DNA of 64,000 bases from Eledone cirrhosa (GCA_964016885.1 OZ024750.1:31434001-31498000); one strand, 5' to 3'. Positions 15,510 to 64,000 are shown, counted from the stretch's first letter. Notes: generated by a model not told the origin, from the letters alone. Numbers and translations: made by a program.

Positions 15510-17022
15510 TATATATATATATATATATATATAAAATACGTAGTTTAGAAAGCCACAACAATGCAGATGGGAAATCTCGAGGTAGGAAGTGAATGATAGA
15601 TAGGAGAAATAGGAGAAAGTGAAAATTGAGAGAGACAAAGATGAAAACAAAACAAAGGTAGAAGGGTTACCGTAGTGGAGATTTAATCCCAATATTTCGG
15701 GCTCACGCCCATCAACGGGGGAAAGTTCCAAAAAGGGGGGGAACAGGCTAAGCCGGAGAAAGTTGTGATGTCGTTAAAACAGGAATGCCGTTATGGGGAG
15801 AAAATTTAAATGAGGGGAAAGAATGCGCGTGCGCGTGATAGGCTGTGGCAAAAGCTACTGACCAAATGGGTTAAATCAAGAGGGTGCGCTAGCGTGTGAA
15901 AGTCGTAAAATATGTGTGTGTAAATATATATGTGTGTGTAACTGTGTGTGTATATGTGTAAGTGTGTATATGTGTGAGTGCGTGTGTGTGTGAAAGATAG
16001 TGGGCTGTAGAAGCTGGAAATCAAAGGGTGTGAAAGGTGGTAGGTTGTAAAACATGTGTGCGTGTATAAATATAGATGTGTGTGTGTATGCGTATGGGTA
16101 TGCATATACGTGCGTGTGTGTGAAAATAGCAGGCCGTAAGGGCTGTGAATGGTCACTATGGTTAAATTAGCCATGTCAGCTCATTTCTCTCAGCCCGGTT
16201 GTTAAGTGGGGGTCTGAGGTTCTTAATAACAAGTGCTTCCTTTATCCTTAAGGATCCGATGCTGCGTTCAGTCGCTAGGACTGTGACCAAGGGTCTACCC
16301 TGTGGGTTTCCGCATTTAAGGATGTGTTTACGGAAGGAAGATGCGTTGGTGTTGATATGTTCCTTGATACGAACATGTAGGGGTCGGATGGTGCTACCTA
16401 TGTAAAACTTGTTACATTTATCGCATTGAATCTTATATACGACATAGGTGCGTAGGCAATCTGCCCCCCGTATCGGGCAGTTGCTGAGGGAACACGTCCC
16501 ATCTGACTCGTCGGGTTTGTTGGAAAGGCATCTTCGCAGCGAAGGTCCTGTGTGGGCGAAATGTATGTCAAGTCCCTCCGTCCGTATGGCCCTGCGGATG
16601 GCGTTCGTGGTATATTCACTCAGGTGGGGGATTTTAAAGAAGCACCTGCTTTTATTTAAGTTTCTAGTGGGTGTCTGTTTATTGGATCTGGGGTCTCTAA
16701 TTCCGTTAATCAGTCGCTTGGGATATCCATTAGACTTGAGTAGATTACGGAATTGCGTGGTATGGGTGAGACCACCCATCGGGTCGCTGCATCTGTTAGT
16801 GGTCCGTGTCAGTTCATTTAGGACATAGCCTCTCTTAGCGTTGTTGGGGAGGGCTGAGTTGTAATGTACAAATAAGTCCTTGCACGCTGCTTTGCGGTAG
16901 AAGGTGGTGTTTATGTCTCCTTCTTCCGAGATGTTGATACGGAAGTGGAGGAGGGCGAGTGACCCGTCTTCTCCTGGGTGTTCGATGGTGAAATCGACGT
17001 GATGGTCAGTATCGTGTAATGT
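15510..17022 (-). mobile_element. 5'-truncated Penelope-like element (Neptune/Nematis-type linker) with 3' UTR ending in (TA)n
   Basis: RT thumb and GIY-YIG ORF, (CA)-rich 3' UTR, degenerate HHR at 15687-15722 (gggc-gtga-gccc GAAA ta tt). Confidence 0.88.
16162..17022 (-). CDS. Partial PLE polyprotein: RT C-terminus/thumb, Cys linker and GIY-YIG endonuclease
   Basis: Open frame DFTIEHP..SLALL..TTFYRK..VHYNSALP..LKSNGYP..CSLSNCPI..C..VVYKIQCDKCNKFYIGSTIRPLHVRIKEH..KEALVI..PPLN; extends upstream of the ORF-track Met. Confidence 0.9.
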   Translation of the reverse strand, partial: TLHDTDHHVDFTIEHPGEDGSLALLHFRINISEEGDINTTFYRKAACKDLFVHYNSALPNNAKRGYVLNELTRTTNRCSDPMGGLTHTTQFRNLLKSNGYPKRLINGIRDPRSNKQTPTRNLNKSRCFFKIPHLSEYTTNAIRRAIRTEGLDIHFAHTGPSLRRCLSNKPDESDGTCSLSNCPIRGADCLRTYVVYKIQCDKCNKFYIGSTIRPLHVRIKEHINTNASSFRKHILKCGNPQGRPLVTVLATERSIGSLRIKEALVIKNLRPPLNNRAERNELTWLI

Positions 17023-17198
17023 TCATCGATACAACCCCTACAGGTGGATTAGCTTACAAATTTAGAAGGGCCCTAGATAAACATAAACTCAATATTAAGA
17101 TAGTAGAAAGACCAGGTAACTTCATAAAAACACTTATTAGTAATACATACCCTTTTCAAATACCTCCCTGTATAGGATACAGTGGTCACAGCATTTGA
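17019..17198 (+). pseudogene. Fragment of a second PLE ORF (RT-EN linker)
   Basis: MFIDTTPTGGLAYKFRRALDKHKLNIKIVERPGNFIKTLISNTYPFQIPPC resembles the F..TP...L....KIVERPG..IK.L....PF...C linker seen in PLE proteins. Confidence 0.6.
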
Positions 17199-18122
17199 TA
17201 ATTGTTATAAATTTGATAATAGTTATAAATTTGCACATAGCATAACTAGCCTAACTAACATAACTAGGCTGTATAACCACCGTGGAAACATTTGTAAGCA
17301 CACATAATAAATTATCTTTTTATGATGTCTACCTGTTATTATTCCTTCTTTATCTACACTCCGGAATACAGAAGGATCAGGAACTAAGTTTCTTCAACAA
17401 TTTTTCCATAACTCGTTGAGTAACCTCTCACCGTACGTCAACTCTATCCAGTGTAGTAATTAACCATTACTGCATCTTATATATATATATATATATATAT
17501 ATATATTACCAATCAATGGTGTTACATCTAGAATATTTTTGTTATTGTTCAAACAAGATTTCTAAGTCATAATCTACATTTTCATGCTGCTTAGTCACAT
17601 ATTCTGTAGATTGACATTCAACTTATAGTCATTCCTTCATGATTCTATCCTATATACCACTGTGCCTTTCTATTGTATGTGTTTATGTATCACATCCTCT
17701 ACATAGAAGCCTTCTGACCATGGAATTAGTATTCTAATATGTTTTTAGACATCACGGCAAAACCATGTTGGATCAATGGCAGGCATTCACCGGCATACAC
17801 TGCAATTGATCGTGCATCTCAAGAAAAATATTAAATTCATTACAAATTAGAACAAACTAGAACAGCCGGGAGAGTTGCACTTCATAAATTATTACAACTT
17901 TAGATATAATGTAAGATCTCTCTCTCTCTCTCTCTCTCTCTCTCTCTCTCTCTCTCTCTCTCTCTCTCTCTCTCTCTCTCACTGTACAGACATACACACA
18001 CAAACACATTACCTACCATTGATTGCAGCATTTTATAGTAGAAACTTCGATGTTACTTGACCTCCTACCTCATGTCACTTCGAACATCGTTGTCCCCTCA
18101 TTATTTCTAATTTCTCATTCTT

Positions 18123-18158
18123 TCTTCTGATGTAGGACTAACGTCCGAAACGTTAAGA
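18123..18158 (+). ncRNA. Minimal type I hammerhead, variant or mutated core CUGAUGU
   Basis: UCUU CUGAUGU A GGAC-uaac-GUCC GAAA CG UU AAGA. A related copy lacking the first core segment is at ~33505-33522. Confidence 0.65.
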
Positions 18159-18471
18159 CACTATTCTTACTATTTCAAGCTTTAAACTAATATATTCCAT
18201 CCATATATATCTTATCTGACATTGGTATAAATTAGCTGCTGGGTTTGAAATAGTGAGAAGACTGTCGTTGATAGTCTGGACGCGTAGACACAATTTCCGA
18301 CTTTCTATTTAATAGATTTAATTTCGAATAAACAATAGTTCAAGACTCTAGGAGACAAAGGTTACAGAATGTGTTGGGTGGTTTATAAAAGGGGGGGGGG
18401 TGGCATAGCTATCACGTGCCATTCTAAGGTGTAAGGTTTATTTTTAATTTTTAATGAATGTATATATGTAG

Positions 18472-18642
18472 ATAATTGTTTCTACTTTTGGCACAAGGCC
18501 AGCAATTAACCCAGTGTATTACTGGTACTTTATTTTATCGACCCCGAAAGGATGAAAGGCAAAGTTAACCTCGGCGGGATTTGAACTCAGAATGGCAAGG
18601 ACCGTAACTCTATGCGTCAAAGCATGGCGTCCGACCCTCTAC
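18472..18642 (-). mobile_element. Nin-domain SINE, subfamily B
   Basis: Diagnostic aatggcaagg..cgtaactctatgcgtcaaagc segment. Confidence 0.9.
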
Positions 18643-62062: not shown

Positions 62063-62819
62063 ATATATATATATATATATCATATTTATAATTTCTTATA
62101 ATAATAATGTATACAGCTATAAGAAATCATAAACTCTTGGTGAGTCGCAAATTCAAGTAAGATCCAACGCAGATTGAAACAAAACGTATGAGATTTATGG
62201 ATACAAGTAGATCGATGGGCATATAGCTCTCGAGAATTTCTAAACACCACAAATCTCATAGCTCCATCTACACTCGATGATCTCTAAACTCGTGATATCT
62301 TCTGTTGTTTACTTTTTTAGATACTAAAATAACAACCTGCAATGTATACCAATTGTGATGTCTTCTCTTTCAATATATTTTTCTACTAAAATTAATAAAT
62401 GAGAGTTTAAAAAATAATTTATTTATGGATTCACGTCATGTCGTAGCCGTAATGTAATGTAAGTGGATCTGTGATGATAGGCAGATCAATAGAATTGGAT
62501 TTAGTAATAATGAAATATATATATATATATATACATTTAATATAGACCTTAATTGTTTTAGAAATAACGAAAGAAAAGAAATATATTCAATATTGTTATT
62601 CAGTGCTTGTTCATGTATATTCACATATTTATAAATAGAGGAAATTGTTTTTTTGTAATATATCTAAATGGTGGCGTAGAAAACAATTACTTTTAATCGT
62701 ATTCAGAATTGCTTTTCACATTTCACTTACATATATAAGGGCGGTGCCCCAGCATGGCCTCAGCCGGATGGCTGAAACAGGTAAAAGAGTAATATATATA
62801 TATATATATATATATATAT

Positions 62820-63540
62820 AAGAACCGTAGAGCAAATATTTATTAAATAACTGATTAAAGTTTAAGCAAAGAATCGCTGCTTTCACCCTTAACAGGATCT
62901 TCTGAAACTATATATATATATATATATATATATATATATATATATATATATATAGTTTTAGAAGAATATATATATATTTATTAAAATACCAGATTAAAGT
63001 TTAAGCAAAGAATCGCTATTTCACCCTTAACGGGATCTTCGGAAACTAACAAAGTCAATCTGTAAACGCAGAGTGAATAATTAAAAAAACGTTGCAACCG
63101 GAGGAAGACAGGAAGACGATACTTTGGTTCGTGGAAACGTTCCCTGGAAAAGAACGGGAAAAAACGAATATAATACGTCATTATTTGGAGCGGTGAAAAA
63201 TAATTACACGCAAAGACAAAACCACGTTTATGGTATAAAAGAAGTTGTAGACTAATGTTCTCTTAGGTGGTTCATAGAGACGTTCTCTGGCAATGAACGG
63301 AAAAAACGAAGATAATACGTCATATGTGGGGCATGGAGAACAATTGTACGCAAAGACAAAACCACGTAAATGGTATAACTGAAGTCGTAGACTAAAATTC
63401 TAACTAGGAAACCGAATGATTCTCCGCTTCAGAGTTAAGAATAAAGTAAATAAAATACAGGGGTAATTGAAATTAAATAAATACATACACGCAACCAAAT
63501 ACGTACATACACAAGCATACGCGGAAACACTCGCCATAGG
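62820..63540 (-). mobile_element. Two further family A 3' ends (62820-62910; 62975-63540) separated by (TA)n
   Basis: Homologous to 61520-62062. Confidence 0.85.
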
Positions 63541-63596
63541 TATACTATATATATATATATAGAGAGAAGTGGTTACACAACAGTTAGTTCACCATA

Positions 63597-63636
63597 CCGA
63601 GAACAATTGTTTCATCTTAGCGGATCTTCAGCTCGG
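63597..63636 (-). ncRNA. Type I hammerhead in a fold-back unit (63560-63935)
   Basis: CCGAG CUGAAGA uccgcuaagau GAAA CAAUUG UU CUCGG; weak stem II; 22-bp IR at 63565-63586 / 63848-63869. Confidence 0.75.
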
Positions 63637-64000
63637 GACGTGCATGGTTATAGGAACAGGAAGGAGAACCGTACGAACCCGCATGCGCAGAAACTCGGTC
63701 ACTTCACACAGGTAATACTAGACTGCGGGCGAGAGGTGTAAGGGAGATAACTGCGAAAGTCCGAAAGTTTTTAGGTTGAAAATAAAATTAAAATAAAATT
63801 AAAAATAAAATTACAAAGAGTCAGTCCGGAGCCTTGTAGTTATGCAGTAACTGTTGTTTAACCACTTCTACCTAACTCGTCCCTTGGACTGAGTGCTCTA
63901 CCACTACGGATATTACCTTCCAGTGTTCCACCACTATATATATATATATATTATTATGTATTAAACAACATACCAGTGGTTTCCTAAAAGCAAAAGGTTT

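Follow-up and report, generated by a model that had tools for sequence, protein, structure and literature searches.

We analysed a 64,000-nucleotide stretch of the Eledone cirrhosa genome (GCA_964016885.1, OZ024750.1:31434001-31498000; hereafter the window; assembly of 3.0 Gb), in which a segment of ~48 kb (15510..63935, the analysed span) is crowded with type I hammerhead ribozyme motifs carried by Penelope-like elements (PLEs) and by short non-coding retrozymes. By homology, we found 35 pieces of at least 35 nt from 18 families in this span, i.e., more than the about 20 motifs and at least 12 families proposed in a sequence-only reading of the window. Eight families (19 pieces) have a PLE open reading frame (ORF) upstream, five (7 pieces) are permuted non-coding units without PLE coding sequence, and five further families (9 pieces) show neither a consistent ORF link nor a permuted unit. 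The observation made in that reading was confirmed. Its interpretation was partly supported, not including the claim that the spacers between microsatellites are largely ribozyme retroelements.

Hammerhead motifs and their abundance

All 16 positions listed in the sequence-only reading have genuine type I hammerhead layouts, the coordinate given being the start of stem I. The six palindromes it named were found, and stem III is perfectly palindromic in 10 of the 17 window motifs. A CUGANGA core with GAAA and a U-H cut site occurs in 13 of the 18 families of the window: 12 are canonical, and one has a U3-A8 pair. Stem I, which pairs with sequence specific to each family, has at least 3 bp in 14 of 16 cases, against a mean of 1.06 (maximum of 9) when arms were shuffled between families; stem registers were placed by hand, and 32265 was excluded as a relative of 39209. 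Two-sided stem changes occur within four families (clusters 0 and 3, the 28520 family, and the 39209/32265 family), and the motifs show the three covarying stems of type I hammerheads. Some variant cores listed in the earlier reading turned out otherwise: those at 18123 and 54743 are decayed copies, since their families are canonical, and the one at 25750 has the known U3-A8 pair (PMC4209133). The 28520 core is canonical, as stated, with a stem I of only 2 bp in that copy. The motifs of 15718 (-) and 34039 (-), the half-hammerheads at 30201-30414 and 35926-36114, and further copies of the 19397 family had been overlooked.

Motif density was well above that of dinucleotide-shuffled sequence. 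A first descriptor (canonical and relaxed cores) gave four canonical matches in the window, where 100 local dinucleotide shuffles averaged 0.06 (maximum of two), and six relaxed-core matches against 0.54. A stricter descriptor was run on a genome sample of 99 stretches of 10 kb (990 kb, hand-spread over C1-C15, C17, C18, and C28) and on three shuffles. It matched 57 canonical, 13 U3-A8, eight U4A, and three U4C cores in the sample, and 0.3, 0.3, 0, and 0, respectively, in the shuffles; other core changes were near the shuffle background. Thirteen of the 57 canonical matches belong to one array of 465 nt units (at locus L037), and a few singletons look chance-like. The strict canonical density was ~58 per Mb (~44 per Mb without the array), which extrapolates to ~170,000 motifs genome-wide.

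A homology census with 30 family queries gave 173 copies in the sample (175 per Mb, bootstrap 125-228). The analysed span holds 29 such copies (~600 per Mb), roughly three times the sample density, a figure somewhat favoured because 17 of the queries derive from the window itself and an eighteenth from a family also present there. Eight of the 99 sampled loci are as dense as this span and 45 have no copy at all. By extrapolation the genome would hold ~0.5 million motifs, decayed copies included, in line with the very large repertoire expected in the earlier reading. Genome-wide exact matches, each count accompanied by a reversed-pattern control, numbered 15,876 (19397, CAGAAGA), 10,792 (25753), 7,092 (39209 region motif), 2,708 (63631), 1,331 (15718), 1,191 (30201), and 397 (CCGUCGA sister of 38784); all controls gave 0.

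In line with the expectation that standard annotation would miss these elements, none of the 150 Rfam matches listed for the window (of 194) was to a hammerhead family, and the leading matches were microRNA models on TA repeats and hairpins. When folded as monomers, 12 out of 12 motifs tried had an A15.1-U16.1 pair probability of at most 0.2. We gave this result little weight because the folding model handles three-way junctions poorly.

PLE ends and retrozymes at (TA)n tracts

The ORF-linked families (15718, 19397, 25753, 30201, 38784, 63631, 46543, and 54162) include the three most abundant in the window. Because they run upstream into a PLE ORF, their 19 pieces are 5'-truncated PLE ends and not separate short elements. 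They show the hallmarks of endonuclease-containing PLEs: a single ORF with a reverse transcriptase (RT) plus a GIY-YIG domain at its C-terminus, tandems of pseudo-long terminal repeats (pLTRs), inverted 5'-truncated copies, and an optional tail. The three or four coding remnants noticed in the earlier reading are four, at 16165-17019 (-), 18235-18740 (-), 36884-37733 (+), and 60527-60946 (+). Another family (cluster 19) was removed from the ORF-linked set when its motif was found to lie upstream of the coding sequence.

The first remnant belongs to PLE-A (15718 family), a young, 5'-truncated Neptune/Nematis-type element at 15535..17022 (-) that ends in (TA)n and comprises the RT thumb, linker, C-terminal GIY-YIG, and 3' untranslated region (UTR). 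Its hammerhead (15687..15722, -) has the core CCGUUGA (U4C + A6U), a stem I of 4 bp (also in a core-free scan), a stem II of 4 bp, and a palindromic stem III. Across 135 other scored copies, amino acid identity is 95-98%; open frames reach 877-1027 aa and the pLTR tandem spans 3.44 kb. PLE-A and the 25753 family have the CCHH cysteines and the cysteine linker, with GxKF and DKG in PLE-A. The Neptune/Nematis label was given by motif and spans two clades not separable without reference sequences. A 3' end of the 25753 family lies at 25712..25918 (+), with a compensated U3-A8 hammerhead at 25750-25785, and a second end of the U3-A8 family lies at 55075..55290 (-), with a short deletion in loop II.

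The 19397, 30201, 38784, and 63631 families have the Hydra-clade motifs (RWK-like, DKT, CxCX5C linker, no CCHH), as read from translations (RWR in 19397, DKT in 19397 and the 38784 sister, 30201 by its endonuclease alone). The 19397 family, with its ORF end 0.9-1.0 kb upstream of the hammerhead, contributes an inverted pair of 3' ends with a ~90 nt tail at 19231..19550 (+), where the hammerhead (19392-19442, +) has the core CAGAAGA (U4A), a U.U at the base of stem II, and a 4 bp hairpin stem III. Other U4A-family pieces are an inverted pair at 26920..27156, an insertion at 60260..62065 (inverted end, the Hydra endonuclease remnant 60527-60946, a 1 kb 3' UTR, and a damaged hammerhead near 62008), and two further ends at 62820..63545 (-). 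The 30201 family is present as two half-hammerhead inverted pairs (30201..30414, cut inside stem II, and 35926..36114); it mostly breaks or inverts inside its long stem II, with 34 pieces and three near-whole motifs in the sample. At 36490..38930 (+), a retrozyme-family piece is joined to a broken Hydra-clade PLE (coding 36884-37733) that ends with the canonical hammerhead of the 38784 family (38781-38865, +). The 63631 family end (63565..63800, -) has a canonical hammerhead at 63597-63636, with a stem II of 2 bp and a U.U at its base; coding sequence lies upstream in 12 of 49 copies, at 140-185 nt in ten of them. Another Hydra-clade endonuclease remnant (18215..18760, -; coding 18235-18740) is broken by a short interspersed nuclear element (SINE). 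Two families were linked to ORFs at one locus each: 46543, a young end at 46358..46585 (-) with a canonical hammerhead at 46506-46546 and Hydra-like coding 1.08 kb upstream, and 54162, an old end at 53990..54550 (-) with a hammerhead at 54123-54165 and Neptune-like coding 1.08 kb upstream.

The five non-coding families have units of 340-550 nt that repeat head-to-tail, as in retrozymes lacking LTRs. The 54746 family (340 nt period in 17 of 25 copies) contributes ~1.15 units at 54553..54950 (+), with a hammerhead at 54743-54782 that is canonical in the family and A9U in this copy. The young 59716 element (59513..60075, +) has ~1.1 units of 550 nt (period in 14 of 17 copies) and a canonical hammerhead at 59708-59784 with a 5 bp hairpin stem III. 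The 30960 family (440 nt period in 3 of 4 copies) is found at 30750..31037 (-), with a canonical hammerhead at 30921-30965, and again with a core at 36586, in the piece joined to the Hydra-clade PLE. The 24469 element (23820..24752, +) has ~1.5 units of 519 nt, an inverted 5' piece, and a canonical core at 24469; the 34039 piece (33912..34075, -) has a hammerhead at 33964-34044, canonical in the family and C3U in this copy. The assignments of these two families rest on 2-3 loci (519-557 nt period in 2 of 6 copies, and ~530 nt, respectively). At least 13 such permuted families occur across all the DNA fetched. Li et al. call retrozymes "active" when a copy has at least two consecutive complete hammerheads; each window element has one complete motif. 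Elsewhere, the L037 array (L037:4100-9700) exceeds that number, with at least 13 units of 465 nt arranged head-to-tail, every one bearing an intact canonical hammerhead. This array is our best candidate for an active retrozyme source. A "coding" match at 30760-30943 was dropped, as it arose from a non-coding piece within the query set.

The junction at 36586-36630 between the retrozyme-family piece and Hydra PLE coding DNA falls two bases beyond the cut site predicted for the former, a single case that is possibly a template switch. At least five families, both PLE and retrozyme, have a U.U opposition at the stem II base (19404-19416, 59723-59756, 63614-63624, and clusters 3 and 10).

The remaining families include a minimal hammerhead at 18123..18158 (+), decayed in this copy and canonical in the family, with a second piece at 33507-33548. 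A decayed cluster 12 piece lies at 18949..19045 (+); it has U4C in one locus, and U4C is present in the cluster 12 copies seen. A perfect inverted duplication (27587..28770) has canonical cores at 27838 (-) and 28520 (+), with a stem I of 2 bp and a stem II that covaries in the family; the 24 bp terminal unit of this family forms 6.5 tandem copies at 52938-53092, adjoining (TA)n. The canonical hammerhead at 32259..32315 (+), with a palindromic stem III, is related to 39209, which lies in an inverted pair (38949..39310; canonical hammerhead 39202-39265). No ORF was seen upstream of 39209-type hammerheads in 25 fetched loci. The canonical core at 39607..39679 (+) has a weak stem II base; at 39611 a direct repeat of ~35 nt recurs ~204 nt apart (by eye), without a period in other copies.

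A dinucleotide repeat follows within 250 nt of 127 of the 149 copies (85%), against 617 of 2,965 random sites (21%); SINE flanks, used as a control, had such repeats in 17 of 107 and 12 of 105 cases on the two sides (11-16%). The L037 array was left out of this count. TA was the repeat in 118 of the 127 tracts, which marks (TA)n as the target. The (TC)n at 54274 is GA-rich sequence belonging to the element itself, and the (TG)n at 46591 adjoins a 5' truncation. The 3' ends are fixed, one or two per family, ~30-170 nt beyond the predicted cut site, with short and long alternatives in several families. The 5' ends are ragged, with a median reach of ~100 nt upstream of the core in 30 fetched U4A-family copies. 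An inverted partner lies upstream in 26 of 83 U4A-family copies and 42 of 73 copies of the 25753 family.

The elements, as computed from hand-drawn bounds, make up ~32% of the non-microsatellite DNA of the analysed span. Coverage is patchy, ranging among segments from 0% to 90%; four patches reach 51-90%, and in three more the figure is 0-3%. With this coverage, and 45 sampled loci devoid of copies, the claim that the spacers are largely ribozyme elements did not hold; that of short retrozyme families is correct for the five non-coding ones and wrong for the 19 pieces that are PLE ends.

Altered catalytic cores

Among the most successful families are some whose cores are predicted to be impaired, a point that the earlier reading had overlooked. 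Five PLE families or subfamilies carry lineage-wide cores that are neither canonical nor compensated: CAGAAGA (19397), CCGUUGA (15718), CCGUCGA (sister of 38784), CUGAGAA (major subfamily of 30201), and CAUGAAGA (54162). These motifs are hammerhead-derived folds that we predict to cut poorly. In the U4A family, A4 is found in 100 of the 100 matches listed and DNA runs show no change there at 5% or more. The PLE-A core is found in 98 of 100 matches listed, without core differences reaching 2% in a DNA run; a relative with 58% endonuclease identity has a canonical core. CCGUCGA occurs in 91 of 100 matches listed (median of 97% identity among 12 copies), and in both pLTRs of three Hydra-type tandems of 4.8-4.9 kb. 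The 30201 family is split between CUGAGAA, with a C3.A8 mismatch (~66 of 100 matches listed), and UUGAGAA, with a compensated U3-A8 pair (~31 of 100). The 54162 core, with one extra A after C3, was exact in 8 of 15 loci. All five variants retain G5, A9, and GAAA, although the constancy of GAAA is partly built in because the variant-core searches demanded it. The proteins of PLE-A and of the CCGUCGA family show no significant similarity (BLASTP E-value of 0.14 or worse), and the U4C + A6U change therefore most likely arose independently in two PLE lineages.

In a search for direct repeats that tolerated two mismatches in the core, all retrozyme-type units recovered had canonical or U3-A8 family cores. 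Uncompensated cores occur in 5 of 11 ORF-linked families (5 of 12 before the removal of cluster 19) and in none of the 13 retrozyme families (one-sided p 0.011; p 0.017 without the single-locus links of 46543 and 54162), in a small sample of families that are not independent and were partly ascertained by core descriptors. This pattern would fit a cleavage activity that is dispensable in PLEs and kept by retrozymes.

Cleavage, mobility, and competing explanations

We think it probable that the analysed span is a pile-up of PLE 3' ends and retrozymes, all ending at (TA)n, in which retrozymes likely use PLE enzymes and PLE cleavage is likely dispensable. The PLE protein would nick (TA)n, and reverse transcription would begin internally on uncut RNA, mostly halting early or switching strand; the ribozyme, close to the start site, would be copied most because of these early halts and switches. 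Each insertion would leave TA at its flanks and invite further ones, so that clusters of elements would build up. Retrozyme units would probably be excised by their canonical ribozymes (acting as dimers if stem III is short and palindromic), then circularised, copied for more than one round, and mobilised in trans. Coding PLEs would likely manage without efficient cleavage, so lineages with a weakened core could spread with their three stems kept. The published in vitro work on Poseidon, a PLE of Anolis (Frangieh et al. 2024, PMC11167929), describes hammerhead mutants that left insertion unaffected, uncut RNA as the main template, and two internal RT start sites that produce the tail. The full pairwise scan in PMC9901934 gives weak activity for single and double mutants of CUGA, except the C-G swap.

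Several points weigh against this explanation. What we say of cleavage and expression is predicted from genomic DNA, five of the 18 window families fit neither the ORF-linked nor the permuted class, the ORF links of 46543 and 54162 come from single loci, and core-based descriptors had a part in finding the families, which lack independence from one another. That the double change arose twice speaks against a dead core drifting freely. A viroid tolerates U4C (PMC3088659), and U4C, A6C, U3-A8, and U.U at stem II are recorded among natural hammerheads (PMC3088659, PMC7229834). The Anolis ribozyme is described as cleaving only when the protein is present (PMC11167929), and the variant cores could therefore work in vivo. 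Linear read-through of tandem arrays, L037 being an example, could also account for the permuted units.

A possible, if somewhat unlikely, alternative is that the variant cores are working catalytic cores, probably aided by protein, and that cleavage is required in every family. It would account for U4C + A6U in two lineages without significant protein similarity, in one of them within a family whose sister has a canonical core and the same stems II and III, for the unchanged G5, A9, and GAAA, and for the three tandems with CCGUCGA in both pLTRs, and it can draw on the protein-assisted cleavage reported in PMC11167929. Yet changes in CUGA give low activity in the mutational scans covered by PMC9901934, the constancy of GAAA is partly a product of the search, and the C3.A8 subfamily disrupts a pair reported as necessary while outnumbering its compensated sister ~2:1 among the matches listed. 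A variant of this idea, to which we give slightly less credence, is that CCGU-N-GA is a natural alternative core, selected independently in two distant lineages of PLEs and active only in the PLE ribonucleoprotein, U4A and C3.A8 being further cases of PLEs tuning the ribozyme down as the retrozymes that parasitise them keep the fast canonical core.

That most short families would be independent non-coding retrozymes filling the inter-microsatellite spacers is very improbable: the ORFs contradict it for the 15718, 19397, 25753, 30201, 38784, and 63631 families, ORF-linked families hold the majority of the pieces, including those of the three most abundant families, and coverage is ~32% and patchy. 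It does describe the permuted families of the window and of the other fetched DNA, as well as the L037 array, and the five families with no consistent ORF link could be counted in its favour. Chance matches in AT-rich, palindrome-rich DNA could be suspected from the shortness of the hammerhead core, the silence of Rfam among the matches listed, and the weak stems of some copies; the excess over shuffles refutes this, and dispersed families with thousands of exact matches (none in the reversed controls) and compensatory stem changes leave it with practically no credibility.

Much of what we favour, i.e., a pile-up of PLE ends and retrozymes, builds on known systems: the literature already describes hammerheads in PLEs, retrozymes, targeting of (TA)n, tails, and inverted pairs, and it is the scale that is unusual here. 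The minimal hammerheads that PLE pLTRs carry (Cervera and de la Pena 2014, PMC4209133) are similar in being type I with a palindromic stem III and an extra base 9.1, in having a U3-A8 variant, and in forming many families per genome, mostly as single truncated copies and opposite-strand pairs. The counts given in that paper reach ~9,000 (Xenopus), far fewer than our extrapolations, and the family-wide U4A, U4C + A6U, C3.A8, and extra A after C3 were not encountered in the parts of it that we covered. Like the Hydra clade as described by Craig et al. 2021 (PMC8557442), our families have RWR/RWK, DKT, the CxCX5C linker, no endonuclease CCHH, flanking CxxC and CxH, and (TA)n insertion. That description has few families, of less than 3 kb, with canonical hammerheads, whereas E. 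cirrhosa has at least five, with 3' UTRs of 1-2 kb and units as long as 4.9 kb; copies number in the tens of thousands, and non-canonical cores occur in three (sub)families. At L326-L331, the Hydra-clade elements measure 4.8-4.9 kb and their 3' UTRs ~2 kb.

Non-LTR retrozymes (Cervera and de la Pena 2020, PMC7229834; Li et al. 2026, bioRxiv 10.64898/2026.07.22.740005) are likewise short, non-coding, tandem or permuted type I units, presumed to be mobilised by PLEs, and have a U.U at the stem II base in axolotl. Relative to these accounts, the window retrozymes stand apart as dispersed copies of 1.1-1.5 units in (TA)n, whose inverted 5' pieces are PLE-like and whose 3' ends are fixed; units reach 550-595 nt and are known from DNA alone. 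Poseidon shares the two RT start sites, the optional tail, the uncut template, and the AT-rich target. Its reported tails measure 30-40 nt, against up to 70-100 nt here, and its mutants were engineered in vitro, whereas here natural lineages with altered cores have expanded (PMC11167929).

Our literature search found no cephalopod hammerhead inventory and no report of these family-wide cores, some of which Lunse et al. 2017 may describe; the word "ribozyme" is absent from a 2026 octopus repeat paper. Counts quoted in the literature are 126,247 hammerheads in the 28 Gb axolotl genome and more than 6,000 in a coral, and the strict canonical density in E. cirrhosa is above these figures. The roles proposed for the PLE hammerhead are RNA processing, parasitism, or no role at all. 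Paired comparisons are naturally available in this genome, where sister subfamilies share their stems, differ in having a canonical or an altered core, and have spread in either case, beside canonical retrozymes.

Other repeats were also noted in the window. A very abundant SINE occurs at 25240-25425 and about 20 other places (~100-150 matches per Mb of sample), forms tandem copies of 203 bp at 31168-31685, and is not enriched beside microsatellites. It probably resembles a SINE of octopods. An open frame of 884 residues at 11269-13923 (-) encodes ORF2 of a long interspersed nuclear element (RVT_1, zf-RVT), which we take to be L1/Tx1-like, and adjoins a (TA)n tract. At 1003-2284, a 31 bp satellite has ~42 copies with a strong G skew, followed by an 18 bp repeat at 2291-2845.

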